Source: Squalus acanthias (Eukaryota). Taken from it: a DNA stretch of 64,000 nucleotides. Positions within the stretch are counted from its first letter, which is position 1, and each line of letters opens with the position of its first letter. The notes under the pieces were generated by a model. That model was not told the DNA's origin. It saw only the letters and a program-made list of their open reading frames with translations, and ran no database searches. The stretch spans positions 11,098,001-11,162,000 of the forward strand of contig CM059432.1 of assembly GCA_030390025.1 (NCBI GenBank), written 5' to 3'. This document shows positions 986 through 40,385 of the stretch, piece after piece. Made by a program: the position numbers and the translations under genes.

Positions 986-2837
986 GTTAATTGTTAGTGA
1001 GTTTAAGGCTTTAACTACATGCTACTTAGAAGAGACCTCCAGTGAAACATATGTGTACATGTTTCTCATAACAGAAAATCAGGATTAGATGATAAAATAC
1101 TCTTATCTGTTTACCATATCTAAACTAAGTTGCTTGTGCGGTATAAGATTTTTAGTGGTTGCACAGGTAAGTAAATGCTCTTTGCGTAGTGGCCACAAAG
1201 TGGAGCTGTGGTTATCTAAAGTGGGGAAAAAAAACTCTTGTGATTTACCGTTTGCAGTACTCCTAACAATAGATTTGACTTGTTAGGCCCCGATCTCTTC
1301 CCTTTTAATTGCTCAGGTGCCAGAGTGCACAGAAACCAGATCTTCCTTCCACCTTCTCCCCTTCGCAGAAGCGCAAAATAAATCAGTGATATTTGAGCAT
1401 TTTCATTAGTTGAGAATATTTTCAGGATGTTGCCCACCTGCGCTCAATGCGACAATTATTTGAAGGCATTGTCAGATACGACAGCATTTGCTATTTTTTT
1501 TTCCTGTGGAGTGTAACGAGAGATCCTAACACCCTGTGTACGTTCTGAAAGCGGTTGTCGTTCGATATATCACAATGATGTGAAGAAAAAAAATCAGCGG
1601 TCACTGAATAGCCTCCTGAGCCAGATTAAGTGTAATGTTCACGGAGGCCTGGGAAGCCAGTTACCTGCCTGCTTGCCTTATTCATGACATTGGAAGATAC
1701 AAGAGTGGCAGAAAATAAAATAGCTTTAAAGACTATTTTCTGTCACGTCTTTGCTCCTCTTCTTCACCAACCCCCCCGCCCCCCCACCCCATATCACATC
1801 CCCATCTTTTGTAACCATGTTGAGCTTAGAAATAACGCCACAGCTTTGATATCAGTCCTTGACCAAGCCCCCAGATGCTGCATTTGACCAATGAATAACT
1901 AGTCTGCTCCTCAAGCTATTTTCTTATCCTTCGCATGATCTTGCTGACACGGGAAACAATCACCTACCTGAAGAATCCCAATTGTAGCCAAGGCTAAATC
2001 TTGAACAAAAGTCTCCTCATTTTAGTGGCTACTGCGTGCCCAGTGTTTTAATGCTCTAAGCTTGGAGAAAACTGTTGTAATGCACATAAAAAATACATGC
2101 AATTCAATTTGCCATTTAAATAGTGTAGAGCAGGCAAAGCCACAAGTCAGTAACTAAATTAAGTGGAATGTTTTCCCACATGTAACTGACTTTTAAAATA
2201 TTTATGATGCCAAATAAAACGGTTGTGGATTTTTTATTGGTTTCATGGGACAGGTAGCTATGCTACGCTGTGTTCGTGGAGTGCGCACATTTTTAACGAC
2301 ATGGAAAATTAAAACTTTATATTTGGGATAATTTTTGTTTTCTGCAAAATTCCCAGTTAAAATGGCAATTCAATCTTTTTATTCATCACTGCTCCAAGTA
2401 AACTGTGCTGTTCAATTTACAAATCTTGTATAGTTTCATGTTCTTTGGTTCATAACTCTCGGTTACTGCATTTCTGTTATCCAAACTCTTCCTTTGTCTT
2501 TGCAGCAGTTGAGACAAAAATATGGGTTAAAAATTTGTCTGGGCCTGTTTTTGAGCCCAGCCTTGAGACTGCACAATTAGCAAGAGGTCCAAGGATCAAT
2601 AGAATATGGTCCTTGGGCCTCATCTGCATACTCGGGGCAAGCTGGTCGCACCTCCCCCCCTCCCCAGGCAGATCGCCTGACGAGAGATTCCAATTTAGGG
2701 TCGCCTGCCTCACCGACAGTGACGCCTGATGAGTCGGGGAAGTCTTCATGTTTCTCCTGGCTCTGCGGGAAGAGTACTTTTAGCTAGTGGCTGAAGAACC
2801 CTGAGTGAGGCAAGCTTGACGCCTGATCCCCCACATC

Positions 2838-3481
2838 GGGCCCGAATTTCCCCAAAGGCTCAACAGGTGTTAGGGTCCTCATCAACATATTCGTGGGGCC
2901 TGACTGCTGTTTTGGGGACACCTTAAAAACAAAAATGGGCCTCACTAATTCAGGAGGTCAATTTTGACTTCTATCGGCTACCGTTGATGGTCTGAAACAC
3001 TGAAAATGGGGTCAGTAGCCATACCGCTCCGATAATCCCACAGAAGAGGCCAGCAACATTTTGAAAAGGTGCCGACTGGGTGTGTGGATCATCTGCCTGC
3101 TTCAAATGGTAGGCTCATTTTAATATGCAAATCACCCCGATTGCCAATTTATGTTGGAACGGGTCGGAGCACGCGTTCTGTGTACACTCCAACCAGTTGC
3201 ATAGGCAATGGAGCCGAAAAGGCCCAGCCAAGCTAAGTTTGGAATCATTATTGTGTTGCCCAGAGGCTCCGGTCCTACAGAAATAATCTGGGTCGCTGCC
3301 GCTCCGGGACCGCCCCCCACCACCACCACCCTCCGCCAACTGGGTCAGCCACCCAAACGTTAAAACCGACCCCAATCAGTGGGATCAATGCCTGCGCAGA
3401 TTAGGCACAGACCATCCCATTGCTAAACTGGTACGTTTTGCGCCCGAAAAATGGGTGCAAACGTGTACAGATTTCTAGCCC
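2838..3481. mobile_element. Possible degenerate Harbinger-type MITE(s)
   Basis: GC-rich block bounded by gggcccgaattt and atttctagcccc, which resemble other MITE termini here; TSD unclear. Confidence 0.3.
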
Positions 3482-3930: not shown

Positions 3931-4085
3931 ATCCCCTTTAAATTGCAGGGCGGAACATAACAGAAGCTAATTTACAGGTTTAAAAAAAAGACCAAGATGT
4001 TGGAAACTGAAATAAAAACAGAGAATGCTGGAAACACTCAGCAGGTCAGGCAGCAGCTGTGGAGAGAGAGAGAAACCGAGTTAAT

Positions 4086-4874
4086 GGCCCGTAATTTGCG
4101 GTGGTTAATAACGGCAAACAAAGCGTTTGCTTGCCATTGCCACTTTGAAACTGACCGCAACATCAGGTTGCAGCCCCTGCGCATCCTAATGCTGAAATCC
4201 TGAAGTTGCGCTCAGTCATTCACTGCTCCGACACCGGCTGCGCTGTGAAACCGCCCACCCCCCGCCCCACAGCCAGCAATCAGGATAATCTCTCTCATCA
4301 GGGAAACTGACGAAAACTTTGGTTCCTCCGCGGTAATACTGCTGTTAAATACCACATTAAAAGTTAGACCCTTTAGGATTAGATGTAACTGGGGTTTTAA
4401 CAACGTATTGACTGCTAAACAAAGGTTATAGCCCTGAAAAATGAATTTTCATTTTGTGGAGTGTTAAATTTATCTTTATTTCAGGTTTGCCTCTTCCCCA
4501 TGTGAGAGCCTCAATCTTTGTTTTGCTCTCTCTAACATTTTTAAAACGTTAGAATCAAAGGAACCTTCCCATTTCCTGGTTCACTGTCTTGTGAGAATTC
4601 GGCATTTTGATTGGCTGCTAAGACAGCTTGTTGACGTCGCAGCAGCTCGAGTTAGGGATTCCCCATTAGCTCGCGTTAGTGATTCCCCATTAGCTCGAGT
4701 TAGGGATTCCCCATTAGCTCGCGTTAGGGATTCCCCATTAACTTGCATTGATTTCAATTATGCGTCGGAAAAGCCGAACGTCTCGCCACAGAGATCGCGA
4801 GATCTTTGTGGGAAGCTTACTTCAGGGCCGGTGGCGAACGCCTTTGCTTCACCGCTGACCGCAAATTACGGGCC
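4086..4874. mobile_element. PIF/Harbinger-type MITE inserted in a Penelope pLTR
   Basis: Perfect 17-bp TIR ggcccgtaatttgcggt / accgcaaattacgggcc; 3-bp TSD aat/aac (the difference fits CpG decay). Confidence 0.85.
4644..4739. repeat. Tandem repeat, 4 x 24 bp (agctcgMgttagggattccccatt)
   Basis: Four contiguous near-identical units with no spacers. Confidence 0.95.
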
Positions 4875-5199
4875 AACGTTTCAGTTCAATGACCTTTCTC
4901 ACCGGCCTGAAACGTTAACTCTGTTTCTCTCTCCACAGATGCTGCCTGACCTGCTGAGTGTTGCCAGCATTTTCTGTTTTTATTACTAATTTACAGGTGT
5001 TAGGTGGCACTCCTGACAGATTTTTGGTGGATAAAAATTTTAAGATTTTCTACCAAATTCCACCAGATGCATGCTAAGGCATCCAACTGTGCAATGCCAC
5101 AAATAATCACAGTTAAGTACCACTATGAGTTGAAAATTCACCCTCGATCCCTTTGAGACACAGTGCACAAATTCTGTCAGAAATTTGAGAAACAATGTT

Positions 5200-7247: not shown

Positions 7248-7388
7248 TACAAAAGCAAAATACTGCGGAGGCTGGAAATCTGAAATAAAAACAGAAAATG
7301 CTGGAAATACTCAGCAGGTCGGGCAGCATCTGTAGAGAGAGAGAAACAGAGTTAACGTTTCAGGTCGATGACCTTTCGTCAGAACACT
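7248..7388 (-). mobile_element. Penelope pLTR 3' end insertion
   Basis: Matches the ends of the Penelope element at 43613-46722; 12-bp TSD ttgagatcttta at 7236-7247 and 7389-7400. Confidence 0.85.
7351..7385 (-). ncRNA. Minimal type I hammerhead ribozyme motif (Penelope type), core intact
   Basis: gtt-CTGACGA-a-AGGTC-atc-GACCT-GAAAC-GTT-aac: conserved core, 5-bp helix II, palindromic AACGTT helix III region. Confidence 0.7.
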
Positions 7389-15530: not shown

Positions 15531-16727
15531 CTTCTGAATTCCTGGCACTAAGTGTATATTGTCTGTCTGCCTGGCTTTGTGTGGTACAGGGAGTCTACGA
15601 ACAAAGAGTAAAAGAAAACTTACGAAATAAATAAATGCATTTTTAATTATGTGTTTCGACACAGTGAAATAAATCAATTTTGAAAATGTTTTCTGTTCTC
15701 TTTAAAACAATATGATTTGATTTGATTACATGACAGTGTGTAAACTTGACAAACATTTGACAGAGGTTTAACAAGGTACTTTTAAAATATGATTGTAAAT
15801 AGCATGTATTAACAACATATTAGGGGGTAGGATTTTCAAAGTAAATTAATGGACTAGAGCAGGATTCCATCCCATCTCAAATGTATCTCAAACATTACAC
15901 GATTATCATTATAGTTGGGTGGTGGGGCGGAACTGAGCGTTGTAGCGGAAAGGTTTTGCACCATGGAGAAAGGCACAACCCCAATTTCAATCTCCGCTCC
16001 ACTCATCTACACTCCACTAAGTGGGAAAATGCTGAGCAGATGGGAAATGTGAAGATCAGAAGGGAGAGTCCCCAAGACCTCCTAGCAGGAGGCAACAGGT
16101 AGACTTTACAGAGATCTGCGAGCAGTCAAGTTGCCTGCCTTTTCAAGCCTAGGCAGACCAAAAGGTGGGCAATAAATCATCAGAAGAAAAATGAAAATGA
16201 GGGGAAAAAAGGCATAACTAATGCGTCTATTTATTATGGTCATTCACGCCAATTACTGCATATTCTCAATATGAGTTACCTTCTAAAACTATTGTCCTCT
16301 ATTTTCTGAACCGGAAACAAAGCTGAAATTCAGTGGCAGTCTTGCGTTTGCCATTATTTCATGTGTGTGTGTGAACTTTGTTGTTTTGTTCCTGAAGGTT
16401 TGGCAGGTTCCCATATTATTCGAGAAGTACGCAGACAGGATCAGCATAACAATGAGCCGCAAGAATCAAGAATCTTTACTTATAAGATTTTATTTAGCTA
16501 AAAATAACATTCAGAAAAATAAAAGCAACTGCAGAAATTTGCAATTGTCAAATGCTGCTATGATTTTAGGTAAGTGGTTCAGACTTGAGTGAAGTGATGC
16601 ACAACTGGTTTAACCATCCATCACTAGATCTGGCTGGACCACATCTAGCGCTACCTACCCTCACTCTCCTCTGCCGAAACCGCTACTATGCCAAGATCAT
16701 CCCGGAGAGCAAAGATAACCCTCAGCT

Positions 16728-17832
16728 ACAAAAAGCAAAATACTGCGGATGCTGGAAATCTGAAGTAATAACAGAAAATGCTGGAAATACTCAGCAGGTC
16801 AGGCAGCATCTGTGGAGAGAGAGAAACAGAGTTAACGGGCTGAATTTTGATACTGGGGCGGGTTGGGGTCGTGTTATCCACTTTTCGTGTTATCCACCCG
16901 ACTGCAATTGGATGTGGGAGATTGATGCAATTTTCACCTAATTGGGCAATTGAGTTCCAGCATGTGGGAACCCATGAACCAATTAGTGTTTTCAGTCTGA
17001 AAGTCGTCTCTGATGATGTCATCATTGCTGCTGCATTGAAGGTCTTCAGAGACTGCCTGGCCTTTGTTGTGAGAGGACCTGGATGCAAAATGAGCAGCAG
17101 CACTAAGTCTGCACCCAGATATTTTTACACCACCACTGAGATATATATATATATATATCCAGCTCCAGCCAAATGTACTCCAGCCAGCCATCCAAATCTG
17201 CTCCCGCCAGGTTTCACAATTGTGATTCAGAACAGGCGTGCTTCACGTAGAACAAGGGTTAAAATCAAAAAGGCCTTTCAAAATGGCATTATAGAGCCAA
17301 TTTAGTGCTTGTTAAGGGCCTTAACAGCCTATCCCGTCTCTTAAAGGCGGGACGCAGTCGGGACTAGCAGACACGATTTCATGAAAATTGCGTGGAGGCG
17401 GGATGGAGGCGGACTTGTGTCTGCCCGCCAGTTTTCGCAATTTTAACCCCCCACACGCCTCCAAACCCGCCTCCACGGGTCAATGAAAATCCAGCCCAAT
17501 GTTTCAGGTCGATGACCCTTCATGGCCACATTGGGAAACAGTTAGCCAAGGCAGTTTTGAGATAAGGAATGGAACAATGGAAGGACAGGATGGTAACAAG
17601 TTGGCATCTGTTGTTTTGAAGGAAATACATCCTTTCTGGGGGGTCTTGTTCACAATAACACTTGTCATGCCATAATGAATCAGCAATGACAGTATTTTGT
17701 GAGAAACAGACTGTAAAGATCTCAAAGTGTTCTCACGAAAGCTCATCGACCTGAAACGTTAACTCTGTTTCTCTCTCCACAGATGCTGCCTGACCTGCTG
17801 AGTATTTCCAGCATTTTCTGTTTTTATTTCAG
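16728..17832. mobile_element. Penelope-type insertion carrying an inverted copy of 7278-7595
   Basis: 15-bp TSD agataaccctcagct at 16713-16727 and 17831-17845; inverted pLTR ends; 17519-17834 is the reverse complement of 7595-7278. Confidence 0.85.
16837..17497. mobile_element. PIF/Harbinger-type MITE inserted in a Penelope pLTR
   Basis: TIR gggctgaatttt / aaaatccagccc; 3-bp TSD aac/aat; pLTR reads through (gttaac|gtttcaggtc). Confidence 0.8.
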
Positions 17833-18734
17833 ATAACCCTCAGCTTCTTTACTCCACTACAGCTCCTTGAAGCCCTCATCTTGTCCATGAAACCCACATC
17901 TTGCTCCCTTGACCCCATTCCTACTAAAGTGCTGATCAGTCAATTTCCTTTCCTGGCCTCCCATGCTAGCTGACATGGTAAATTGTTTCCCTCTCCACAG
18001 TTACTGCGCCCCTCCTCAAAAGAACCATCCTGGACCCCAGTCCTGATTCCAAATCAACCTCCCCTTCCTCTCCAAAGTCCCTGAATGTGTTGTTGCCTCC
18101 CAAAGCTGCACCCATCTTTCCCACAATTCTGTTGGAATCTCTCCAATCATGTTTCCACACCACAGCATCAAAACAGCCCTAATCAAAGTCACAAAGGACA
18201 CCCTGTGTGACTATGGTGCATTTTCCTTCCTTGTCCTTCTTGACCTCTCTGAAGCCTTTGTCACAGTCAACACCCCTCCAATGCCTCTCCTCTGTCGTCC
18301 ATTTTAGAGGGACTGCCCTCGCTTGATTCTACTATGACCTTTTCAATTATAGCCAGAGCACCTCCACCAATGGCTTCTCTCCCTGACTCCCGCACCGTTA
18401 CCTCTGGAGTCTCCTAACGATCCATCCTTGGCTCTCTCCTCTTCTTCCTCAACAGGCTACCCCTTGACAACATCATCTGAAGACATGAGGGGAATTTCAA
18501 CATTGAAGAGCGTGTGGGTTTAGGTGCGGGTTGGGGGGGTTAAATTCGCCGAAAATGTCAGCGCACCTAGAAGCCGGCTCCAACCCGCCAACTTCTGGGT
18601 TTCACTGGGACGCGTTGGGCAGATTGCCGGTAACCCCCCTCAGGAGAGGTGGGTTACTAATTTGAATTTGCAAATCGCTCCATTGTCCTTTAAAATTTAA
18701 TGCCACATGCACGGGTTTCCCGGGCTTCCTGAAA

Positions 18735-18996
18735 CTCGAGAAGAGCAATGCCTCCGGAATCTGAGGTTGTCTTGTCAGGTGATGGCTGATACCTGCAGCC
18801 TCCGAGAAGAAGACCTGCTCCCTGCTGGACCTAGTGGCCACACATTACCACTGGTTTTTAAAGTCACCGCCGCCCTCCACATTTTTGCCTCCAGATCCTT
18901 CCAGGGTGCTGCAGGAGCCTTATCTAGGATCTCCCAGTCATCTGCACGCAAATGCAGAAGGCAGGTCATGGATGAGATGTTTGCCAGGGCTCGCAG
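18735..18996 (+). pseudogene. Harbinger (HARBI1-like) transposase, N-terminal remnant
   Basis: EEQCLRNLRLS...KVTAALHIFASRSFQ...ISQSSARKCRRQV. Confidence 0.8.
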
Positions 18997-19668
18997 TTTT
19001 TATTTATATTCGTTCATGGGATGTGGGCGTCGCTGGCAAGGCCAGCATTTATTGCCCATCCCTAGTTGCCCTTGAGAAGGTGGTGGTGAGCCGCCTTCCT
19101 GAACCGCTGCAGTCCATGTGGTGAAGGTACTCCCACAGTGCTGTTAGGTAGGGAATTCCAGGATTTTGACCCAGCGACGATGAAGGAACAGCCATATATT
19201 TCCAAGTCAGGATGGTGTGTGACTTGGAGGGGAACTTGGAGGTGGTGGTGTTCCCATGTGCCTGCTGCCCTTGTCCTTCTAGGTGGTAGAGGTCGTAGGT
19301 TTGGAAGGTGCTGCCGAAGAAGCCTTGGTGAGTTGCTGCAGTGCATCTTGTAGATGGTATACACTGCAGCCATGGTACGTCGATGGTGGAGGGAGTGAAT
19401 GTTTAAGGTGGTGGATGGGGTGCCAATCAAGTGGGCTGCTTTGTCCTGGATGGTCATAGAGTCATACAGCACAGAAAGAGGCCCTTCGGCCCATCGTGTC
19501 CGCGCCGGCCATCAAGCCCTGTCTATTCTAATCCCATTTTCCAGCACTTGGTCCGTAGCCTTGTATGCTATGGCGTTTCAAGTGCTCATCTAAATGCTTC
19601 TTGAATGTTGTGAGGGTTCCTGCCTCTACCACCCTTTCAGGCAGTGAGTTCCAGATTCCAACCACCCT

Positions 19669-20673
19669 CTAGGTGAAAAAGTTTTTCCTCAAATCCCCTC
19701 TAAACCTCCTGCCCCTTACCTTGAAACTGTGCCCCCTGGTTATTGACCCCTCTACTAAGGGGAAAAGTTCCTTTCTATCTACCCTATCTATGCCCCTCAT
19801 AATTTTGTACACCTCAATCAGGTCCCCCCTCAGCCTTCTCAGCTCGAAGGAAAACAACCCCAGCCTGTCCAGTCTCTCTTCATAGCTGAAGCGCTGCAGC
19901 CCAGGTAACATCCTGGTGAATCTCCTCTGCACCCTCTCCAATGCAATCACATCCTTCCTATAGTGTGGCGACCAGAACTGCACACAGTATTCCAGCTGTG
20001 GCCTAACTAACGTTTTGTACAGCTCCATCATAACCTCCCTGCTCTTATATTCCATGCCTCGGCTAATGAAGCCAAGTATCCCATATGCCTTTTTAACCAC
20101 CTTATCTACCTGTCCTGCTGCCTTCAGGGATCTATGTACATGCATGCCAAGGTCCCTCTGATCCTCTTTCCTTCCTAGGGTCCTACCATTCATTGTGTAT
20201 TCCCTTGCCTTGTTAGTCCTCCCAAAATGCATCACCTCACACTTTTCAGGGTTAAATTCCATTTGCCACTGTTCTGCCCATCTGACCAACCCGTCTATAT
20301 CGTCCTGTAGCCTGAGGCTTCCCTCCTCGCTATTTACCACCCCACCAATTTTCGTGTCATCTGCAAACTTACTGCTCATACCTCCTACATTCATATCTAA
20401 ATCATTAATGTACACTACAAACAGCAAAGGACCCAGCACCGATCCCTGCGGTACACCACTGGACACAGGCTTCCAGTCACAAAAACAACCTTCGACCATC
20501 ACCCTCTGCCTCCTGCCACTAAGCCAATTTTGGATCCAATGTGCCAAGTTGCCCTGGATCCCATGGGCTTTTATCTTCTTGACCAGTCTCCCATGCGGGA
20601 CTTTGTCAAAAGCCTTACTGAAGTCCATGTAGACTACATCAACTGCACTACCCTCATCCACACACCTAGTCAC
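19669..20673 (-). CDS. CR1 ORF2 reverse transcriptase, C-terminal part (after frameshift; premature TAG at 19669)
   Basis: [26 protein letters not shown] motifs. Confidence 0.9.
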   Translation of the reverse strand: MTRCVDEGSAVDVVYMDFSKAFDKVPHGRLVKKIKAHGIQGNLAHWIQNWLSGRRQRVMVEGCFCDWKPVSSGVPQGSVLGPLLFVVYINDLDMNVGGMSSKFADDTKIGGVVNSEEGSLRLQDDIDGLVRWAEQWQMEFNPEKCEVMHFGRTNKAREYTMNGRTLGRKEDQRDLGMHVHRSLKAAGQVDKVVKKAYGILGFISRGMEYKSREVMMELYKTLVRPQLEYCVQFWSPHYRKDVIALERVQRRFTRMLPGLQRFSYEERLDRLGLFSFELRRLRGDLIEVYKIMRGIDRVDRKELFPLVEGSITRGHSFKVRGRRFRGDLRKNFFT

Positions 20674-20679
20674 CCCCTC

Positions 20680-23415
20680 TCAAAATTCAATCAAATTGGT
20701 CAGACATGATCTCCCCCTGACAAAGCCATGCTGACTATCCTTGATTAATCCTTGCCTCTCCAAGTGGAGACTAATTCTGTCCCTCAGAATTTTTTCCAAT
20801 AATTTCCCTACCACTGATGTTAGGCTCACTGGCCTGTAATTCCCTGGTTTATCCCTACTACCCTTCTTGAATAATGGTACTACGTTAGCTGTTCTCCAGT
20901 CCTCTGGCACCTCCCCTGTGGCCAGAGAGGTTCTGAAAATTTGTGTCAGAGCCCCTGCAATCTCCTCACTTGCCTCACACAGCAGCCTGGGATACATCTC
21001 GTCTGGGCCTGGGGATTTATCCACTTTTAAGCCTGCTAAAACCGCTAGTACCTCCTCCCTCTCAATACTAATTTGTTCAAGTATATCACAATCCCCCTGC
21101 CTGATTTCTATGCCTACATTGTCCTTCTCCAAAGTGAACATAGATGCAAAATATTCATTTAAAACCCCACCTACATATTCTGGCTCTACACACAGATTGC
21201 CACTTTGGTCCCTAATGGGCCTTACTCTTTCCCTGGTTATCCTCTTGCCCTTAATATACTTATAAAACACCTTGGGATTTTCCTTTATTTTGCCTGCCAG
21301 TGTTTTTTCATGCCCCCTCTTCGCTCTCCTAATTTCTTTTTTAAGTACCCCCCTGCACTTTCTATACTCCTCTAGGGCTTCCACTGTTTTTAGTCCTTTG
21401 TATCTGCCAAAAGCCTCCCTTTTTTTCCTAATCCATTCTCGTATATCCCTTGACATCCAGGGTTCCCTGGACTTGTTGGTCCCACCCTTGACCTTTACGG
21501 AAACATGTTGCTGTTGTACTCTCTCTATTTCCTTTCTGAAAGACTCCCACTGCTCTGATTTGAAGTTTCCTACAAGTAGCTGATCCCAGTCCACTTTGGC
21601 CAGATCCTGCCTTATCATATTAAAATCGGCCTTCCCCCAATTTAGAACCTTTATCTCCGGTCCATCTTTGTCCTTTTCCATGACTACCTTAAATCTCATC
21701 GAATTATGGTCACTGTCACCAAAATGCTCTCCTACTAACACTTCTACCACTTGCCCGGCTACATTCCCTAGAATTAGGTCCAGTACCGCCCCCTCTCTTG
21801 TAGGACTTTCGACATGCTGGCTCAAAAAGCTCTCCTGGATGCACTTTAAGAATTCCGCACCCTCTAAGCCTTTCACACTCTGACTATCCCAGTTAATACT
21901 GGGGAAGTTGAAATCCCCTACTATTATTACCCTATTATTTCTACACTTCTCTGAGATTTGCCTACATATCTGTTCCTCTATCTCCCCCTGACTGTTTGGG
22001 GGCCTATAGTACACTCCCAGCAAAGTGCTTGCCCCCTTTTTGTTTTTAAGTTCTACCCATATGGCCTCATTAGAGGAACCTGCTAAGATATCATCCCTCC
22101 TTACAGCAGTAATTGACTCCTTGATTAATATTGCGACACCCCCTCCTCTTTTACACCCCCCTCTGTCTCGCCTGAAGATTCTATACCCCGGAATATTGAG
22201 CTGCCAGTCCTGCCCCTCCCTCAACCATGTCTCTGTGATAGCAACAATATCATACTCCCAAGTGTTCATCAACACCTTCAATTCATCTGCCTTACTCGTA
22301 AGACTCCTTGCATTAAAATAAATGCCATCCAGCCTTGCCATACTCCCTTGTGTCGTTACATATTTGCTCTGCCTTCCAGGCTGACTTGTTTTTTCCTCTA
22401 TATTTGGCTGTGCATCACCCCCTACTATAGCTCCACTCCGTATCCCATCCCCCTGCCAAGTTAGTTTAAACCCCCCCCCCCCAACAGTACTAGCAAACCT
22501 CCCCACAAGGATGTTGGTCCCGTTCCGGTTCAGGTGCAACCCGTCCGACTTGTACAGGTCCCACCTTCCCCAGAAGCAGACCCAGTGATCCAGGAAACTA
22601 AAGCCCTCCCTCCTGCACCAACTCTTTAGCCACGCATTTATCTGCTCTATCCTCCTATTCCTATACTCACTAGCACATGGCACCGGGAGTAATCCAGAGA
22701 TTAAAACCTTTGAGGTCCTGCTTTTTAATCTGCTACCGAGCTCCCTAAATTCTTGTTGCAGGACCTCATCCCTCTTTCTACCCACGTCATTGGTACCAAT
22801 GTGAACCACAACCTCTGACTGTTCGCCCTCCCCCTTCAGAATGCCCTGCAGCCGTTCAGTGACATCCTTGACCCTGGCACCAGGGAGGCAACATACCATC
22901 CTGGAGTCACGTCTGCGGCCACAGACACGTCTATCTGTTCCGCTTACGATAGAATCCCCTATCACTATTGCTCTCCCACTCTTTTTCCTCCCCTCCTGTG
23001 CAGCTGAGCCAGTCATAGTGCCACGGACTTGGCTCTTGCTGCATTCCCCTGAGAAACCCTCTCCCCAATCAGTATCCAAAACGGAAAATCTGTCGGAGAG
23101 GGAGATGGACCCAGGGTACTTCTGCACTACCTTCCTAGTTCTGTTACTCTGTCTGGTGGTCACCCATTCCCTGTCTGCCTGTGCACTCTTTACCTGTGGT
23201 GTGACCACCTTGTTAAACGTGCTATCCACGAAGATCTCAGCTTCGCGGATGCTCCACAGTGACTCCAGCCGCAGCTCCAGCTCCGAAACGCGGATTTCGA
23301 GTAGCTGCAGCTGGAGACACTTCCTGCACATGTGTTCGCCCTGGACACCTAAAGTGTCCCTGACTTCCAACATAGCACAGGAGGAGCACTCCACGCTGCC
23401 GAGCTGCCCTGCCAT
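20680..23415 (-). CDS. CR1 ORF1 (zinc finger plus SGNH esterase) fused in frame to ORF2 APE endonuclease and RT N-terminus
   Basis: CxxC...CxxC, GDSIV, HIGTND, DGLHLN; then NARSL, ETW, GDFN, SDHN, NYRPVSL. Confidence 0.9.
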   Translation of the reverse strand: MAGQLGSVECSSCAMLEVRDTLGVQGEHMCRKCLQLQLLEIRVSELELRLESLWSIREAEIFVDSTFNKVVTPQVKSAQADREWVTTRQSNRTRKVVQKYPGSISLSDRFSVLDTDWGEGFSGECSKSQVRGTMTGSAAQEGRKKSGRAIVIGDSIVSGTDRRVCGRRRDSRMVCCLPGARVKDVTERLQGILKGEGEQSEVVVHIGTNDVGRKRDEVLQQEFRELGSRLKSRTSKVLISGLLPVPCASEYRNRRIEQINAWLKSWCRREGFSFLDHWVCFWGRWDLYKSDGLHLNRNGTNILVGRFASTVGGGGFKLTWQGDGIRSGAIVGGDAQPNIEEKTSQPGRQSKYVTTQGSMARLDGIYFNARSLTSKADELKVLMNTWEYDIVAITETWLREGQDWQLNIPGYRIFRRDRGGCKRGGGVAILIKESITAVRRDDILAGSSNEAIWVELKNKKGASTLLGVYYRPPNSQGEIEEQICRQISEKCRNNRVIIVGDFNFPSINWDSQSVKGLEGAEFLKCIQESFLSQHVESPTREGAVLDLILGNVAGQVVEVLVGEHFGDSDHNSMRFKVVMEKDKDGPEIKVLNWGKADFNMIRQDLAKVDWDQLLVGNFKSEQWESFRKEIERVQQQHVSVKVKGGTNKSREPWMSRDIREWIRKKREAFGRYKGLKTVEALEEYRKCRGVLKKEIRRAKRGHEKTLAGKIKENPKVFYKYIKGKRITRERVRPIRDQSGNLCVEPEYVGGVLNEYFASMFTLEKDNVGIEIRQGDCDILEQISIEREEVLAVLAGLKVDKSPGPDEMYPRLLCEASEEIAGALTQIFRTSLATGEVPEDWRTANVVPLFKKGSRDKPGNYRPVSLTSVVGKLLEKILRDRISLHLERQGLIKDSQHGFVRGRSCLTNLIEF

Positions 23416-25281
23416 GTCCTACCCTTAGTTTACTCCCTTTAAATTAAAGAATATTAAATACACTAGGGACCTTACTTCCCTTTAAACACTACTTACTCCA
23501 AACTAGAGACCTTACTTTTACTTTAATGACTAGAATGTAGAAATACTGTAGAAATACTCACCGCTGGTGCTCTGTCCCCTCTTGTGCAGCTTTTTAGCTC
23601 CTGCTCTCCTGGAAGCTGACAAAGATGGAAAAAGAAAGGAACACCTTCCTCCCCGAACTCTCTCACTCACCAAACTCACAGTTTAACACTCTGTTCCAAT
23701 CTGCACTCCGTGACAAACTGCACTCTAGGTGTAGAGCTTTTTGAGTGTTGTTGGAGCTGCACTCATCCAGGCAAGTGGAGAGTATTCCATTACACTCATG
23801 ACTTGTGCCTTGTAGATGGTGGCAAGGCTTTGGGGAGTCAGGAGGTGAGATACTCGCCGCAGAATACCCAGCCTTTGACCTGCTCTTGTTGCCACAGTAT
23901 TTATGTGGCTGTCTAGTTAACTTTCTGGGCAATGGTGACCCCCAGGATATTGATGGTGGGGGATTCGGCGATGGTAATGCCGTTGAATATCAAGGGGCGG
24001 TGGTTAGACGCTCACTTGTTGGAAATAGTCATTGCCTGGCACTTGTGTGGCGCGAATGTTACCTGCCACTTATCAGCCCAAGCCTGAATGTCATACAGGT
24101 CTTGCTGCATGCAGGCATGGACTGCTTCATTATCTGAGGAGTTGTGAATGGCACTGAACACTGTGCAGTCATCAGAGAACATCCCCATTTCTGATGGAGG
24201 GGAGGTAATTGATGAAGCAGCTGAAGATGGTTGGGCCTAGGACACTGCCCTGAGGAACTCCTGCAGCGATGTCCTGGGGCTGTGATGATTGACCTTCAAC
24301 CACCACAACCATCTTCCTTTGTGCTAGGTATGACTCCAACCAGTGGAGAGTTTTCCCCCCGATTCCCATTGACTTCAGTTTTACTAGGGCTCCTTGATGC
24401 CACACTCAGTCAAATGCTGCCTTGATGTCAAGGGTAATCACTCTCACCTCACCTCTGGAATTGAACTCTTTTGTCCATGTTTGGACCAAGGCTGTAATGA
24501 GGTCTGGAGCCGAGTGGTCTTGGCGGAACCCAAACTGGGCATCAGTGAGCAGGTTATTGGTGAGTAAGTGCTGCTTGATAGCACTGTCGATGACACCTTC
24601 CATCACTTTGCTGATGATTGAAAGTAGACTGATGGGGTGGTAATTGGCCGGATTGGATTTGTCCTGCATTTTGTGGACAGGACATACCTGGGCAGATTTC
24701 CACATTGTCAGATAGATGCCAGTGTTATAGCTGTACTGGAACAGATTGGCTAGAGGTGCGGCTAGTTCTGGAGCACAAGTCTTCAGCACGACAACCAGGA
24801 TGTAGTCGGGGTCCATAGCCTTTGCTGTATCCAGTGCGCTCGGCTGTTTCTTGATATCAGGTGGAGTGAATCGAATTGGCTGAAGACTGGCTTCTGTGGT
24901 GGTGGTGGGGACTTCAGGAGGAGGCCAATATGGATCATCCACTCGGCACTTCTGGCTGAAGATGGTTGCAAACGCTTCAGCTTTGTCTTTTGCACTCACG
25001 TGCTGGGCTCCACCATCATTGAGGATGGGGACATTCCTGGAGCCTCCTCCTCCCGTTAGTTGTTTAATGGTCCACCACCATTCACGACTGGATGTGGCAG
25101 GACTGCAGAGCTTTGATCTGATCTGTTGATTGTGGGATGGCTTAGCTCTGTCTATAGCATGCTGCTTCCGCTGTTTAGCATGTATGTAGTCCTGTGTTGC
25201 AGCTTCCCCAAGTTGGCACCTCATTTTTAGGTACGCCTGGTGCTGCTCCCCTGGCTTGATGGTAATGGTAGAGTGAGGGAT

Positions 25282-26132
25282 ATAAGAACATAAGAAATAG
25301 GAGCAGAAGTCGGCCATTCGGCCCCTCGAGCCTGCTCCGCCATTCAGTAAGATCATGGCTGATCTGATCTTGGCCTCAACTCCACTTTCCTGCCCGCTCC
25401 CCATAACCCTTGATTCCCCTGTTTTTCAAAAATCTGTCTATCTCCGCCTTGAATATATTCACTGACTCAGCCTCCACAGCTCTCTGGGGAAGAGAATTCC
25501 AAAGATTCACGACCCTCTGAGAGAAGAAATTTCTCCTCATTTCCGTTTTAAAAGGGTGCCCCCTTATTCTGAAACTATGCCCCCTAGTTCTAGATTCCCC
25601 CACGAGGGGAAACATCCTTTCTGCATCTACCCTGTCAAGCCCCCTCAGAATCTTATATGTTTCAATAAGATCACCTCTCATTCTTCTAAACTCCAATGAG
25701 TATAGGTCCAACCTGCTCAACCTTTCCTCATAAGACAATCCCTTCAACTCAGGAATCAACCTAGTGAACCTTCTCTGAACTGCCTCCAATGCAAGTATAT
25801 CCCTCCTTAAATAAGGAGACCAAAACTGTACGCAGTACTCCAGGTGTGGTCTCACCAACGCCACGTACAGTTGTAGCAAGACTTCCCTACTTTTATACTC
25901 CATCCCCCTTGCAATAAAGACCAATATTCCAATAGCTGAGGCCCCAGCACTGATCCCTGTGGCACCCCACTAGTTACAGTTTGCCAACCTGAAAATGACC
26001 CATTTATTCCAACTCTCTGTTTTCTGTCAGTTAGCTAATCCTCTATCCAGTCTAATATATTACCCCTAACACCGTGAGCTCTTATCTTGTGCAGTAACCT
26101 TTTATGCGGCACCTTATCGAATGCCTTCTGGA
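25282..26132 (-). mobile_element. CR1 3' fragment with internal deletion, inside LINE B
   Basis: ORF 25376-25924; taagaaca tail repeat. Confidence 0.9.
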
Positions 26133-27286
26133 AATCCGGGCCACGAGGTTACAGATTGTGCTGGAATACAATTCTGCTGCTGCTGATAGCCCACAGCGCC
26201 TCATGGATGCCCAGTTTTGAGCTGCTAGATCTATCCCATTTAGCACGGTGGTAGTGCCACACAACACAATGGATGGTGTCCTCAGTGTGAAGACAGGACT
26301 CCACAATGACTGTGCGGTGGTCACTGCTACCAATACTGTCATGGACAGATGCATCTGCGACAGGTAGATTGGTGAGGACGAGGTCAAGTAGGTTTTTCCC
26401 TCACTATCTGTCGCAGGCCCAGACTGGCAGCTAAGTCTTTAAGGACTCGGCCAGTACTGGTGCTACCGAGCCACTCTTGGTAATGGGCACTGAAGTCCCC
26501 ACCCAGAGTACATTCTGTACCTTTGCTACTCTCAGTGCTTCTTCCAAGTCATGTTCAACATGGTGGAGTACTGATTCATCAGCTGAGGGAGAGCGGTAGG
26601 TGGTAATCAGCAGGAGGTTTCCTTGCCCATGCGCCATGAGTCTTCATGGGGTCCGGAGTCAATGTTGAGGACTCCCAGGGCCACTCCCTCCCGACTGTAT
26701 ACCACCCCTGGTGGAGCTGGACATACCCAGGGATGGTGATGGAGGAGTTTGGGACATTGGCTGAAAGGTATGATTCTGTCAGGCTGTTGCTTGACTAGTC
26801 TGTGGGACAGCTCTCCCACTTTTGGCACAAGTTCCAAGATGTTGGTGAGGAACACTTTGCAGGGTCGACTGGGCTGGGTGTGCCATTGCCAAGGTCGATG
26901 CCGGGTGGTCCGTCCGGTTTTATTCTTATTATTATTATTGTTTTTCGTAGTGGTTTTTTACAACTGAGTGGCTTGCAGGGCCATTTCAGAGGGCAGTTAA
27001 GAGTCAACCATATTGCGGTGAGTCTGGAGTCACATATAGGCCAGACCGGGTAAGGACGGCAGATTTCCTTCCCTAAAGGACATTAGTGAACCAGATGGGT
27101 TTTTACGACAATCCGATAGTTTCATGGTCACCATTCCTGATACCAGCTTTTTATTCTAGATTTATTTAATTAACTGAATTTAAATTGCGCAGCTGCCGTG
27201 GTGGGATTTGAACTCACGTCTGCACATCATTAGTCCAGGCCTCTGGATTACTAGTCCAGTAACATAACCACTATGCTACTGTTCCC

Positions 27287-27450
27287 AGCTTCAACTTAAT
27301 TTGTGATGACGCCAGCCAGAATGAGCAGGCACTCCAAGGAGGAAGAGGAAGAGGAAGAGGAGGAAGATGGTGACCACATCGCAGCACCAGCCGCTCACAT
27401 TGCTGCCCCGGGATGCCAGGGATTCCCTATAGCTGTAAGTTTCAGTTAGT
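27287..27450 (+). pseudogene. Harbinger transposase continuation and acidic C-terminus (catalytic core missing)
   Basis: Continues FARAR|SFNLICDDASQNEQAL from 18996, then jumps to a poly-Glu tract and an RDSLIAVSFS* end. Confidence 0.6.
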
Positions 27451-28936
27451 TACCACCACTGGACCCATGTAACAACCACATCCAACAGCAACTCCCATCC
27501 CCCCACAATCCCACTGACACAAAGCAGTCCTGCTATCAAACAACCATCCAATGCACATCCCCCCCATTGGTTCCTGTCAATTCATGTCTTCCCATTCATC
27601 AAGAAACAACTGAAAAGGCGAGTTGCCGCCCAGCAACCAAGAAGGGGGAACATGGGAAAGTGGTGCAAAGTAATAAACTTAATGTGATTCTACTAAAGAA
27701 TGGAAACTTAACAATATAACATTTTGTCATACGCCCATGGGCATACGCTTCAGCAACTACAACGCTTTACTCTTCCTTTTCCTACTGCTCCTACGTGGTG
27801 CAACCCATGTGGCTTCAGCCGAGGTAGAGGCAGGCTGCTCACATCCCTGCTCTGACTGCTGAGATGCTGTTGGGCGATCCTCTGGGTTTTGGAACCCGTG
27901 AGGGCCCCACCAAAGACTGCTCCACCTGCACCTGTGCAGGGGCAGACTTGGCCATCAGGACAGGAGGCAGCATGTCATCTACTGACTGAGGGGGGGAGGC
28001 AACAAGTGAGAAGTGGGAGCGCTTTGAGTGGAGTCCCCATTTCCATGTCCCCTTTCGCCATCATCCCTCTCATGTGCCAGCCGCGCTTCACTCCTGCCAC
28101 TCTGCCAGAGAGAAGCTTGGTACAGATCAGTGATGCGCTGTAAGGCCAAGGCTAAGGTATCGATTATCCTAGTTAAGGTGCCAGACATGTTGGCATCCAG
28201 AGTCTGCACGGCCATGGTCAAGGCCTGCATGGACTCATTTGATTGCCACGATTGATGTTCCACAGTGTTGGCCACTCTGTCCATGGAAGAAGACATCCTC
28301 GCAATGCCCTGCGCCATCAACCCATTCATGCTTGAGGTGGACTCCTCCATTCTCTCTGCAATCGTGGACATTGCGCGTGAAAGGCCTGTCAGTACGTCGT
28401 AGATTTTCTGCTGCCCCCTCAATAATTAACCTTTTCATCAACAGCCCCCGGGGTGCGACATCTGTGTCCAGCTGAGCAGAGCTCGGAGAGGGCTGCTTTC
28501 ACCGATGTGGGCTCTCCACTGCTGTCCCTGTCTCCACCATCTGTTCTTGCTCATTTGTGAACTGTGAGTCATCAGGTGAAAACCCAACTGTCTGACTAAC
28601 TGGACCCACCGAACTGAGAATATCTGCACTGATGCATGGTAAGCATGAGTCCTGTGATGGTGCACCTTAAGGAGGAATGAGCTCCTATGAGCTCGGGTAC
28701 CTCACCTGTGAAGTGGCCATTGGCGAGTTCATTCATTGACAGCTGGGAAAACCACATAAATACTGTAACATTACACCTCATTACTTGCCTCATTTTGTCC
28801 ACAGGTTTGGGTGTCTGCAGCTTGCAGGTCATTTTTGAAACCTCAGAAGCCACTCCCACTACATTCCTACTCACTATCACAACATTGAGGGATTGGCCCT
28901 CTGATCTCCACATTACCTGCCATCTACTACATCAGC

Positions 28937-29480
28937 ATGGGTGCCGCTTATACAGTCTCACCTTGGTCCTCAGAATCGAACCAAGATGAGCCCCACCACC
29001 AACAGGGCCAGCCACACCAGCAGCAACAGTTGCAACCACAACAGCAGCCTTCTCCTCAATGACCTGATGCTCAACAGGAGAGAGGGGGAACCACAGGGCT
29101 GCAGCGCGCTGGAGGCGATACCCCCAACACAAGGTATACAGGCAGAGGATGAGCTTCCTCAACATGACTGAGCAGCAGTGCTTCAGGAGGCTCAGGCTAT
29201 CGCGCCAGGTCGTCGCAAACATTTGTAGTCTGCTGGAAGAAGACCTGCTGCCCAGAGGTCCTGGTGGACACTCCTTACCAGTGGCTGTCAAAGTCACCAC
29301 CGCCCTCAACTTCTTCGCCTCAGGCTCCTTCCAGGAATCTGCAGCAGACATTTGTGGGGTCTCGCAATCGGCCGCCCACAGATGCATCACCCAGGTGACC
29401 GATCCCACGTTTCACAAGTCAGCCAATTATATCAACTTTGCCACTGATGAAGCCAATGTTACTGAATGGGCAACATATGC
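28937..29480 (+). pseudogene. Second Harbinger transposase N-terminal remnant
   Basis: ORF 29149-29508: [11 protein letters not shown]...[16 protein letters not shown]...[14 protein letters not shown]. Confidence 0.8.
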
Positions 29481-29969
29481 TGCTCAGAACATCACGTTCC
29501 CGACCTGACTCCAAGATAAAGATTCCGGCCGATCATACTTCACTCACTGCTGAAATAAAGTCTGCATGACTGAGTGTGGGTCGATGATATTGAAGTCTGT
29601 CGCCAGGTAGCTGGGAGCCCCCCATCTCTGATGGCCAGGGATGCCGAGACACCACTGATCTCCAGCGCCTCCTCCTCTGCAGGTGTCAGCTGCGAGATCT
29701 GTGGAGGACCACCTCCGGTTCTCTCCCTCTCCCTTGTGTTCTGTGCTCTCTTCTGCAACGGGGGAAGGAACAGACCTATGAGTGACTGTAATGGCACATG
29801 TTCACCTGATGGATGCAGTGCATTTGGTGAGGGTGACTATCAGGAAGAGGCATCATATTGCATAAGGATCAGGGTGCGTGGTAATGGTGGATGGATACAT
29901 GGGGATGTGAGGAAGTGCATAGAATGAGAAGGACGGGTGCTCTTGCAAGTTAAGTGATGTGATGTGGTA

Positions 29970-30605
29970 GAAACATAGAAAAATAGGAGCAGGAGTAGGC
30001 CATTCGGCCCTTCGAGCCTGCTCCATCATTCAATATGATCATGGCTGATCCTCCATCCCAATACCATATTCCCGTCCTCTCCCCATACCCCTTGATGCCT
30101 TTTGTGTCTAGAAATCTATCTATCTCCTTCTTAAATATATTCAGTGACTTGGCCTCCACAGCTTTCTGTGGTAGAGAATTCCACAGGTTCACCACCCTCT
30201 GAGTGAAGAAATTTCTCCTCATCTCAGTCCTAAATGTCCGACCCTGTATCCTGAGACTGTGACCCCTCATTCTAGACCCCCCAGCCAGGGAAAACATCCT
30301 CTCTGCATCCAGTCTGTCTAACCCTGTCAGAATTTTATACGTTTCAATGAGATCCCCTCTCATTCTTCTAAACTCTAGTGAATACAGGCCTAGTCGACCC
30401 AATCTCTCCTCATACCACAGTCCTGCCATCCCAGGAATCAGTCTGGTGAACCTTCGCTGCACTCCCACTATGGTAAGGAGACCAAAACTGCACACAGTAC
30501 TCCAGGTGTGGTCTCACCAAGGCCCTGTACAACTGTAGTAAGACATCCTTGCTCCTGTACTCAACTCCTCTTGCAATGAAGGCCAACATACCATTTGCCT
30601 TCCTA
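29970..30605 (-). mobile_element. CR1 3' fragment inside the Myb gene intron
   Basis: ORFs 29950-30495 and 30410-30670. Confidence 0.9.
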
Positions 30606-31799
30606 GTAGGCTTGACAAGGTGGGGGGGGTGCGCGGTGATGCGTGCAACAGGATGTCGATGAATGTGCAACTGTACTCACCTTTCCTGACCTGATTATGT
30701 CATTATAGTGCTTCCTGCACAGGAGCGTGACACAATGTGCTGCTGCTGACCTCCTGGGCCACCTCTAGCCACGCCGTCTTTGTAGCTGCAGCAGGTCTCT
30801 TCCTCCCATTGCTGGGGAAGAGTATCTCTCTCTCCGGCTCCTCACAGCCCCCAGCAGTACATCAAGCGAGGCATCAGTAAAGCGGGGCGCTGCCTTTGAG
30901 GGTCCGGAGTCCATATTCTGAAATTGCAGTCACTGTCCCAAACCTCCCAACTCCTCTTTGGATCCGCTGCCATACTGGAGTCAAGATTGCTTCATGCGGG
31001 TCCGCAATACACCCGCTGCCGCACATTCGACGCCAAACCCGGAAGTAAAATGATAACGAGGTGGCTGCATTAAAATCCCACAGACAGAAACGCTGAAATT
31101 ACTTCCGGGTTTGCCATGAGATATTGGACCCCACCCCTCCCCCACCCATCCTGCTCCCAACACGCCTCCAAGTTAATATTGGGGCCACAGTATCAGCTTC
31201 CACACGCACACTGATGACACTCAGCTCTACCACCTCTCTCAACCCTTCCACTGCCTCTGTGCAGTCAGACTGCTTGACTGATCCAGTCTTGGATGAGCTG
31301 CAATTTCATCCATGTTAATCATCGGGCAGACCAAACCCCCCAAGCCACAAACTCTGCACCCTTGCTACTGACTCTCGCCCCTTTCCCAGGCGGTGTCTCA
31401 GACTCAACCAGACTGTTTTGCAACCTTAGCATCTTATTGAACCGCAGGCTGAGCTTCAAATCCTATATAATCTCTAACACAAAGACTGCCTACTTCCATT
31501 TATGTAACACGATCTGCCCCTGCTTCAGTCCACCTGCTGCTAAAACTCTCATCCATCCCTTTGGAACCTCTATATAATTCTATGTAATTCTCCTGGCTGG
31601 CCGCCCATCCGCTGTAAACTTCAGCTCATCCAAACGTCTGCTGCCCATATTCTACCCTGCACCAAGTACAGTTCACCCATGATTCCTATCCTTGCTGACC
31701 CTGCATTGGCACCTGTTCCCCAGTACCTCAATTTAAAATTCTAATCCCTGTGCTTAAATCCCATCATGGCCCTCCCCCTTCCCTATCTCTCAAGATAAA

Positions 31800-32109: not shown

Positions 32110-32378
32110 GGCTCCAATTTTAACTCCAGGTGGATTCCCCGCTCAGGCCCGAGATAAAATTACAGTCGGGTCTCAGTGATGTCATTGGGCCACAACATGC
32201 ATATATCAAGAAGGACCCTGCTGGCTCTGGGCGCGTGTCCTTGCTGCCTGCTCAGGAGAGCAGGTTAAAATTGCAGACGCTGCGATCATGGCGGCTTTCA
32301 GACGGGCAAGAGCCAGGATGATTTTAACTGCCCGGCCGCCAGGTTTCTGCTGAGCCAGTCGGGTTAAAATTGCCAGCC
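32110..32378. mobile_element. Harbinger-type MITE
   Basis: TIR ggctccaattttaac / gttaaaattgccagcc; TTA TSD at 32107-32109 and 32379-32381. Confidence 0.75.
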
Positions 32379-36183: not shown

Positions 36184-36925
36184 CTGGAATCCCCTACCTA
36201 ACAGCGTGTGGGTGTACCTTCACCACATGGATTGCAGCAGTTTCAGAAGATGTCCCACCACCACCTTCTCAAGGGCAACTAGAGATGGGCAATAAATGCT
36301 GACCTTGCTAGCGATAGCTGTATCCAGAGAATGAATATTTAAAAAAAAAACTGCATGCTGAACACTAAAGCAGCAGGCTATTGACAGGGCTAAGTGGTCC
36401 CACAGTGAATTGATCAAAGGAAATCTCTGTAGCCCGACAACATCCAGTCACGAGTGGTGAACAACCAGGCAATGAACAGGAGGAGGCGGCATCCATGAAT
36501 GTCTCCATCCTCAACTATGGCTGAGCCCAGCATGTGAGTGACACGGCTGAACTGTTTCGAAGAGTCTTCAGGCAAAATTGCTGAGTGGACAATCCTACTT
36601 GGCCTCCTCCTGAGGTCCCAACCATCATAGATGCTGGTGACCAGCCAATTTGGTTCACTCCATGTGATATTAAGAACTAGCTGAGTCCACTGGACACAAC
36701 AAAGGCTACAGACCCTGACAACGGCTGTAGTGCTATCGACCTGTGAACCACAGCTGGCTAATCCTCAAACAACCCAAAAGGTTACTTTGATAGCACCTCC
36801 TTCCCTTGCAATCTCTACCATTGGGAAGGACGAGCAACAATGTCATTGGAACACCAGTACTCCCAGGTTACACACTATTCTGACTTGGATTTATATCGCT
36901 GACCCTTCATTGTCGCAAGGTCAAA
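36184..36925 (+). mobile_element. Degenerate LINE family B fragments
   Basis: Family tail (ccaccttctcaagggcaac..gatgggcaataaatg) at about 36260-36345 and degenerate ORF sequence homologous to 24780-25130. Confidence 0.7.
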
Positions 36926-36932
36926 ATCGTGC

Positions 36933-37154
36933 CTGCAGCAGGTGGTGTAGCTTGGTGACAGCTTTCTTGGTGAAGCGCAGGTGCCTCACACATTGCTCCT
37001 CGGTATAATTGAGGTATGAGAAGTGCTCCCTTGAAGACCCGCTGTGGGCATGGCCTCCTTGCGCAGTGCACTCCTCCTCCCTGCATATTGAGCCTGCCGT
37101 ATCAGGCCATTAAGTGTAAAAAAAATGGACGCAACGCAATTGTATTTCTAGGCC
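36933..37154 (-). mobile_element. Harbinger 5' end with transposase N-terminal remnant
   Basis: EHFSYLNYTEEQCVRHLRFTKKAVTKLHHLLQ on the minus strand; terminus ggcctagaaat. Confidence 0.65.
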
Positions 37155-39574: not shown

Positions 39575-40385
39575 AACAACTTACATTTATATAACAACCA
39601 CTTGTATTTATATAGCGCCTTTACCGTAGTAAAACGTCTCCGGGTGCTTCACAGGAGTGTTATCAAACAAAATTTGACATCGAGAAACATAAGGAAATAT
39701 CAGGACAGAAAGAGGTTTTAAGGAGCGTCTTAAAGGAGGATAGAGAGGTGGAGAGGTTTGGGAGGCAATTCTAGAGCTTAGGGCCTTGACAGCTGAAGGC
39801 ACGGCCACCAATGGTTGAGAGATTGTAATCCGGGATGCTCAAGAGGCCAGAATTAGAGGAGCGCAGATATCTGAGGGTTGTGGGGCTGGAGGAGATTAGA
39901 GACAGGGAGGGGTGAGGCCATGGAGGGATTTGAAAACAAGGATGAGAATTTTAAAATTGAGATGTTACTCAGCCGGGAGCCATTGTAGGTCATTGAGCAC
40001 AGGGGTGATGGGTGAATTACACTTGCTGCGATTTCGGACACGGGCAGCAGATTTTTGGATAGCCTCAAGTTTACGGAGGGTAGAACGTGGGAGGCTGGCC
40101 AGGAATGCGTTGGAATAGTCATGTCTATAGGTAACATTCAGTGCCGGATGTCGGACAAGCAGTCTGACAATTTAAAGGCAGTGGTTGGGTCGAGAGAAGT
40201 GGTGGTGAGGTAGAGCTGGGTGTCGTCAGTGTACATGCGGAAACTGAGGCTGTGTTTTCGGATGATGTTGCCGAGGGGCAGCATGTAGATGAGAAATAGG
40301 AGGGGGCCAAGGATAGATCCTTGGGGGACACCAGAGGTAATGGTGCAGGGGCGAGAAGCGAAGCCGTTGCAGGTGATTCTCTGGC
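39575..40385 (-). mobile_element. L2 3' fragment with internal deletion
   Basis: ORF 40138-40590: GVPQGSILGPLLFLIYM...YTDDTQLY. Confidence 0.85.

Follow-up and report, generated by a model that had tools for sequence, protein, structure and literature searches.

A single triplet of a Penelope-like pLTR is a recurrent landing spot for Harbinger-type transposons. The hot spot is real and holds a small minority of copies; its recurrence was seen in a related species, and the two filled sites among eight in the window (the whole 64-kb stretch of DNA that was analyzed) are a high draw. The repeated hits on the same base are probably explained by a match between the triplet and an extended target sequence that these transposons prefer everywhere, present here in an abundant repeat, with no role needed for the ribozyme predicted in that repeat.

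Two elements, MITE1 and MITE2, interrupt pLTR arms at the triplet. The two loci (sites 1 and 2) are laid out as follows.

3967-3979, plus strand: left host target site duplication (TSD) of site 1, 13 bp, with its second copy at 4986-4998.
3996-4082, minus strand: inverted pLTR arm of site 1, the part 3′ of the triplet.
4083-4085, plus strand: TSD copy AAT, left of MITE1, probably AAC decayed at a CpG.
4086-4874, unstranded: MITE1, 789 bp, non-coding, Harbinger-type, with perfect 17-bp TIRs.
4875-4877, plus strand: TSD copy AAC, right of MITE1; its ribozyme-strand reading, GTT, is the predicted NUH triplet.
4878-4898, minus strand: remainder of the inverted arm of site 1 (GAAAC and stem II), ending before CUGANGA at the head-to-head junction.
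4899-4985, plus strand: forward pLTR arm of site 1, 5′-truncated, with an empty GTT site at 4914-4916.
4986-4998, plus strand: right host TSD of site 1, 13 bp.
16713-16727, plus strand: left host TSD of site 2, 15 bp, with its right copy at 17831-17845.
16731-16836, minus strand: inverted pLTR arm of site 2, whose final letters are the TSD copy AAC (16834-16836).
16837-17497, unstranded: MITE2, 661 bp, non-coding, Harbinger-type, unrelated to MITE1.
17498-17523, minus strand: AAT and the remainder of the inverted arm of site 2 (GAAAC, stem II and only ATGA of the CUGANGA box).
17519-17834, plus strand: host 3′ region and forward pLTR of site 2, with an empty GTT at 17758-17760; used in the contig test reference.

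The TIRs of MITE1 (4086-4102 and 4858-4874) are alike at 17 of 17 positions, with first letters GGCCCGTAATTT, and the 12-bp TIRs of MITE2, GGGCTGAATTTT and GGGCTGGATTTT, are alike at 11 of 12. MITE2 is flanked by AAC at 16834-16836 and AAT at 17498-17500. A G follows each AAT copy, so CpG decay of AAC explains AAT at both loci, as the first-pass annotation had proposed, and AAC is likely the original TSD of both MITEs. Among empty copies too, G>A at the triplet base was a common variant (contig alignment, place 17758). Eight pLTR sites in the 64-kb window span the triplet, two filled and six empty (4914, 7354, 17758, 43676, 46629 and 57797), which bears out the earlier estimate of two hits at the same base among about eight pLTR ends. 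The TIR boundaries, the flanks and the six empty paralogous sites confirmed that both MITEs occupy the identical triplet with AAC duplicated, and the empty sites supported a 3-bp TSD for both. MITE1 could also be drawn with an outer T/A added to its TIR, which shrinks the duplication to 1 bp, but that choice was discarded, since a TSD of 3 bp is dictated by MITE2 together with the empty sites. Read along the ribozyme strand, the triplet is GTT and lies immediately 3′ of GAAAC. The target had been described as a palindrome; as read from the sequence, the TSD lies where two 6-bp palindromes, GTTAAC and AACGTT, overlap, and not at a palindrome center. Separately, MITE1 contains an internal tandem repeat at 4644-4740 (a 24-bp unit present four times, 93% alike).

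The two cases are independent. Alignments between MITE1 and MITE2 did not exceed 24 bp, and the best had an E value of 0.77; tblastn with 10 HARBI1-like proteins (E 0.01) found no coding match in either. The two unrelated elements sit in host copies with different TSDs (13 versus 15 bp), and these separate host TSDs exclude one composite as the source of the two window cases. A single ancestral composite had been named at the outset as one finding that would overturn the interpretation, and it was not found for these two cases. The order that fits is two host insertions followed by two later transposon insertions. At both loci the MITE occupies the inverted arm, and the forward arm belonging to that host insertion is empty.

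The host repeat was identified as a Penelope-like pLTR because the same repeat follows an RT/GIY-YIG remnant. This remnant and the most complete empty copy are located as follows.

43612-45455, minus strand: Penelope-like remnant, with a broken coding region that runs from RT to GIY-YIG (45455-44185) and a pLTR after it (43707-43612).
7278-7385, minus strand: empty pLTR that alone among the copies shows the complete minimal-hammerhead pattern; its triplet is at 7354-7356.

Protein P0018 (RVT_1 plus GIY-YIG) aligned to 45455-44185 on the minus strand with an E value of 3e-67. When the broken frames were compared with Pfam directly, the scores were weak (E 0.12-0.13), and a further Pfam search of these frames returned nothing useful. 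Both filled loci show head-to-head arms, 5′ truncation, an inverted pLTR and their own TSD, an arrangement known for Penelope-like elements (PMC3846280 and PMC8969392, available parts). In the larger remnant at 43612-46723 each outer end is a pLTR, the right arm has received a LINE piece, and there is a 387-bp, 96% inverted duplication (43795-44181 and 45456-45842). The copy at 7354 reads GTT-CTGACGA-A-stem II-GAAAC-GTT-AAC with a 3-bp stem I, which matches the layout that Cervera and de la Pena give for minimal hammerheads in the available part of PMC4209133. Because of this layout GUU is the predicted cleavage triplet, and the earlier assignment of the triplet as a predicted NUH after GAAAC held up on comparison with that source.

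To follow the site beyond the window, contigs of four runs (X1, X5, X6 and X11) were aligned to 17330-17845, which comprises the MITE2 right end and an empty pLTR. MITE1 lies outside this reference, and the contig depths speak for MITE2 only. X1 and X5 are runs of the window's species, and X11 comes from a related species (organism D). In X11, at least 507 contigs had a loose 5′ end at 17759. This was the only place inside the arm among the six places listed for that run; the rest lay at the 5′ edge and at 3′ ends. The majority letters of these loose ends finish with AAAATTCAGCCC plus A, a MITE2-type TIR, and are followed by the decayed TSD (ATT). Their overall agreement was 0.46, and by eye the letters beyond the TIR differed from both window elements. 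The MITE2 body was nearly uncovered in X11 and X6. The low agreement and the almost uncovered body suggest that several other families probably occupy the X11 site. Depth over the last bases of MITE2 in X11 and X6 was consistent with junctions on the other side, to which short matches could contribute. In X1, X5 and X6 the triplet site was absent from the six loose-end places listed, corresponding to fewer than 379, 295 and 316 contigs, respectively.

Depth continuing from the MITE2 right end into the pLTR made up no more than 0.9-1.5% of the end depth in X1 and 2.2-3.2% in X5, a crude upper bound for one orientation in which summed contig depth is no copy number. In X1 and X5 the right end reached a summed depth of 1-2 million, compared with about 5-27 for a single listed contig, again no copy number. 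Since at most 1-3% of MITE2 end depth enters the pLTR, two of eight overstates the hot spot. For MITE2, on this crude single-orientation measure of about 1-3% at most, there was no sign that most copies sit at one target. The claim that pLTRs are a preferred target thus stands in part: a recurrent Harbinger-type landing spot exists (X11, at least 507 contigs), and a special preference for pLTRs finds no support, given the few percent at most of MITE2 end depth entering them in one orientation and the four other verified Harbinger-type insertions of the window, all outside pLTRs.

The same alignments showed other features of the repeat. Head-to-head pLTR junctions occur in other genomic copies too (17521-17523 joined to 17729-17748), with both arms beginning in or just past the CUGANGA box, a pattern that the reference may bias. 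Contigs that depart from the reference just before 17772 (379 in X1, 295 in X5) represent a diverged pLTR subfamily whose 5′ part is different. A pattern scan returned 21 loci in viral, prokaryote-genome and metagenome contigs; none extended past 31 bp of pLTR, and all were set aside as chance matches.

A search of the window for elements with GG-ended TIRs gave six further candidates; the four kept for comparison each had either a TSD or an empty paralogous site.

2524-3481, unstranded: Harbinger-type element, TSD TAT, flanks AAAA and GTTT.
18488-31186, unstranded: large Harbinger with transposase fragments, flanks AGAC and GTAT.
32110-32378, unstranded: Harbinger-type element, TSD TTA, flanks CCAT and GTCC.
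47779-48559, unstranded: Harbinger-type element, TSD CCG/CTG, right flank GTGT, left boundary uncertain by 1 base.

Candidates at 15824 (right end not verified) and 58352-59006 (weak TIRs) were dropped from the flank count. Flank binomials of 8/12 (P 0.005) and 9/12 (P 0.07) were discarded because they included the dropped candidates and a favorable 47779 boundary. The Harbinger at 18488-31186 splits a LINE RT that has an uninterrupted paralog at about 40253. Its TSD copies, ATG and ACA, are each one CpG change from ACG. The 12.7-kb span contains transposase 5′ fragments at 18707-19009 and 29083-29502 and several nested LINEs, and possibly represents two nested Harbingers. Within the element at 2524-3481, an extra TIR-like left end, GGGCCCGAATTT, lies at 2838, and no matching right end for it was found. 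For the right end of 47779-48559, a second TIR-like end at 47852 is a better match than the outer one; the target of that element is near the zebrafish 15-mer (10/15), with a CTG-like TSD. Elsewhere in the window, long inverted pairs of LINE fragments occur at 39590-41641 and 61079-63355, and a 157-bp hairpin of LINE tails at 62062-62218 gave sub-threshold microRNA matches in Rfam.

GT adjoins the TSD in all four verified non-pLTR insertions (P about 1e-4, window frequencies), and GTNT does so in three of the four (P about 1e-4, window frequencies); the pLTR site reads GTTT. Extended 9-15-bp target preferences are established for PIF/Harbinger (PMC2836001, available part). The 15-bp target consensus of zebrafish Harbinger3_DR, AAACACCWGGTCTTT, includes the GT/GTNT letters, and the pLTR site shares with it A at -4, a pyrimidine at -1, a central W, GT at +1/+2 and T at +4 (PMC3016246, available part). 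Taken together, the sites suggest a Harbinger preference of roughly A-N-N-Y [N-W-N] G-T-N-T, which keeps part of the zebrafish 15-mer in relaxed form and is derived from four comparison sites with features chosen after the sites had been seen and the pLTR site included. The full 15-mer was rejected as an explanation, as it does not single out the triplet: the pLTR site matches it at 7/15, a level reached by 12% of window positions, and the comparison sites match at 8, 8, 10 and 10 of 15.

The 104-bp intact arm contains one match to ANNY-NWN-GTNT, at the observed triplet. The pLTR copies provide 8 of the roughly 164 such sites in the window (4.9%, or 2.9% without the central W). With this expectation, two or more of six insertions would fall at the pLTR site with P 0.03 (0.012 without W), a value that would be unremarkable across 214 windows of the genome. 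Uniform insertion gives P about 2e-7 for at least two of six Harbinger-type insertions here, for a site picked after being seen. A looser ANNY-NNN-RNNT has six matches in the arm and a predicted share of 0.6% (P 0.0006); ANNY-RNNT is fitted without doubt by one of the four comparison sites, and a central C is found in one of the four. A general flank preference predicts a pLTR share of the size observed for MITE2, a few percent. The motif reading is plausible and of the right size, and the motif may by itself suffice.

In the mechanism we propose, the pLTR would offer the target about 125 times per megabase (8 sites per 64 kb). On the ribozyme strand, hammerhead positions A13, A15.1, C15.2 and U16.1 coincide with target positions -4, -2, -1 and the TSD center, respectively. 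The conserved hammerhead core GAAAC-GUH would then spell one Harbinger half-site, and stem I of this pLTR family (AACT) would supply R at +1 and T at +4. Because the core would spell a half-site, the cleavage triplet could be hit without any RNA-level mechanism or ribozyme activity. A putative transposase acting in trans would cut with a 3-nt stagger, producing the AAC duplication, and later one of the two AAC copies would decay at its CpG. The enzyme, the cut, the motif and the sufficiency of the motif are what we infer from sequence patterns.

The first-pass annotation had further proposed that these Harbingers disrupt the pLTR ribozyme, a claim that found no support. Both filled arms are 5′-truncated inverted pLTR pieces that end inside the CUGANGA box at the inversion junction. 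Since neither has CUGANGA, these insertions would have destroyed no working ribozyme, and the host TSDs make it unlikely that the arms were truncated after the MITEs inserted. The box is present in two of eight pLTR copies and the whole minimal-hammerhead pattern in one of eight. Rfam hammerhead models gave no match at E values up to 1. Monomer folds of four pLTR copies were no better than shuffles (z -0.27 to 1.05), and such folds are uninformative for a motif predicted to be dimeric. With the minimal hammerheads of metazoan Penelope-like pLTRs the repeat shares CUGANGA, an extra base before stem II, the pLTR location, GAAAC directly followed by the triplet, a palindromic 15.2-16.2 and a short stem I; stem II of the pLTR closes with A-U or G-U, in contrast with the usual G10.1-C11.1 (PMC4209133, available part). 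In an intact copy patterned like that at 7354, an insertion would part GUU from the 3′ strand of stem I, so triplet insertions might have been favored or kept because they silence Penelope RNA processing. We regard this as very improbable. The filled arms lack CUGANGA whatever the insertion does, six of eight copies have no box, and no Rfam hammerhead model matches. In addition, minimal metazoan hammerheads are described as cleaving weakly in vitro (PMC4209133), and an Anolis element as transposing in vitro with no need for cleavage (PMC11167929), as far as the available text of each goes.

Harbinger families could instead recognize the pLTR, or something bound to it, beyond a short motif, and so use it as a harmless and abundant refuge in the manner of Dada. 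Two of eight window sites are filled, X11 has a sharp single-base peak, and the poor 15-mer match (7/15) implies that the known motif is not the full explanation. This reading is nevertheless unlikely, as at most about 1-3% of MITE2 end depth, in one orientation, passes into the pLTR and four of the six verified Harbinger-type insertions lie elsewhere in the window with the same half-site. The counts could also be inflated by a few old insertions in parent Penelope elements that were then copied by the Penelope machinery. Mobilization of unrelated DNA in trans by pLTR sequences is described in the available part of PMC3846280, and contig counts cannot separate events from copies. Against such copying, the window cases are unrelated elements in hosts with separate TSDs, the pairing of an empty forward arm with a filled inverted arm at both loci fits insertion after integration, and the X11 ends are heterogeneous (0.46) and, by eye, unlike both window elements past the TIR; we consider it quite unlikely. 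Chance is scarcely credible as the explanation, that is, two insertions with only a 3-bp preference falling on homologous bases in a window picked for the coincidence. Hundreds of windows were read, and the runs of the window's own species lack the site among the top places listed. Still, a second species, with at least 507 contigs ending at this base, largely refutes it, and a uniform expectation of about 2e-7 for the named site also speaks against it. The extended target preference remains the reading we favor, and the hot spot is most likely what a known preference would ordinarily produce in a repeat this abundant.

Read in this way, the hot spot offers a natural and very large sample for the target preference of vertebrate Harbingers, until now known mainly from one zebrafish element. 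It also carries a warning for annotation, as Harbinger-pLTR junctions in sharks can mimic composite elements. If the half-site link generalizes, a conserved RNA motif of one mobile element would set the landing site of another class, and like hot spots would be predicted in other Penelope hammerheads. The data do not show that ribozyme function is altered. A bolder extension, which we hold to be possible though rather unlikely, is that ribozyme selection in active Penelope elements keeps remaking the landing pad. Hammerheads would then act as a long-lived sink that many Harbinger families share, in sharks and in other animals rich in Harbingers; the hit would always fall on the cleavage triplet, and some families would have sharpened their preference for it beyond the generic motif.

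Comparison with described systems, each as far as the cited text was available, placed the two elements near several groups. Both have the features of non-autonomous PIF/Harbinger (PHIS) elements: a 3-bp TSD, GG/GGG TIRs and no coding capacity. With Harbinger3_DR and Harbinger3N_DR they share the 3-bp TSD, TIRs starting with GG and a flank preference beyond the TSD (PMC3016246, PMC2836001). The TSD here is AAC, in contrast with CWG for Harbinger3_DR; the other window sites have TAT, TTA, CTG and probably ACG. Unlike in the Harbinger3_DR case, the shared target lies in the predicted ribozyme of another transposon. Tourist-like MITEs such as mPing are likewise non-coding and TIR-bounded, with a 3-bp TSD and an extended target preference, but the 789 and 661 bp found here exceed their 100-500 bp (PMC2836001). 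The AAC duplication also differs from the TWA of the strict PIF/Harbinger group (PMC4482050). For the PHIS groups, Han et al. 2015 give TSDs of CWG (NuwaI), C|TNA|G (NuwaII) and ANT (Pangu) (PMC4482050). TIRs starting with GG/GGG and a 3-bp TSD are shared with these groups, and the pyrimidine and purine beside the TSD are NuwaII-like (PMC4482050). Since AAC/GTT fits none of the three, MITE1 and MITE2 were left without a PHIS group; the TSDs described here fall outside the published group definitions. Dada elements, too, are DNA transposons that occupy a single position within a multicopy sequence encoding RNA; they are described as specific for their target genes, whereas in the present case the target is a selfish repeat and the majority of copies appear to be elsewhere (PMC3706591, PMC8869645).

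In the titles and abstract openings searched, nothing was found on Harbinger insertion in Penelope pLTRs or hammerheads. The available part of PMC4209133 makes no mention of an insertion hot spot, and the word "Harbinger" is absent from the main text, as available, of a retrozyme preprint (10.64898/2026.07.22.740005). The window itself contains DDE_Tnp_4-type transposase fragments, and the ends of the element that carries them resemble the MITE ends only loosely. The window is vertebrate DNA rich in repeats, and the closest named relatives of one of its transposase fragments are in sharks. A third, more diverged HARBI1-like transposase fragment lies on the minus strand at 36864-37031.
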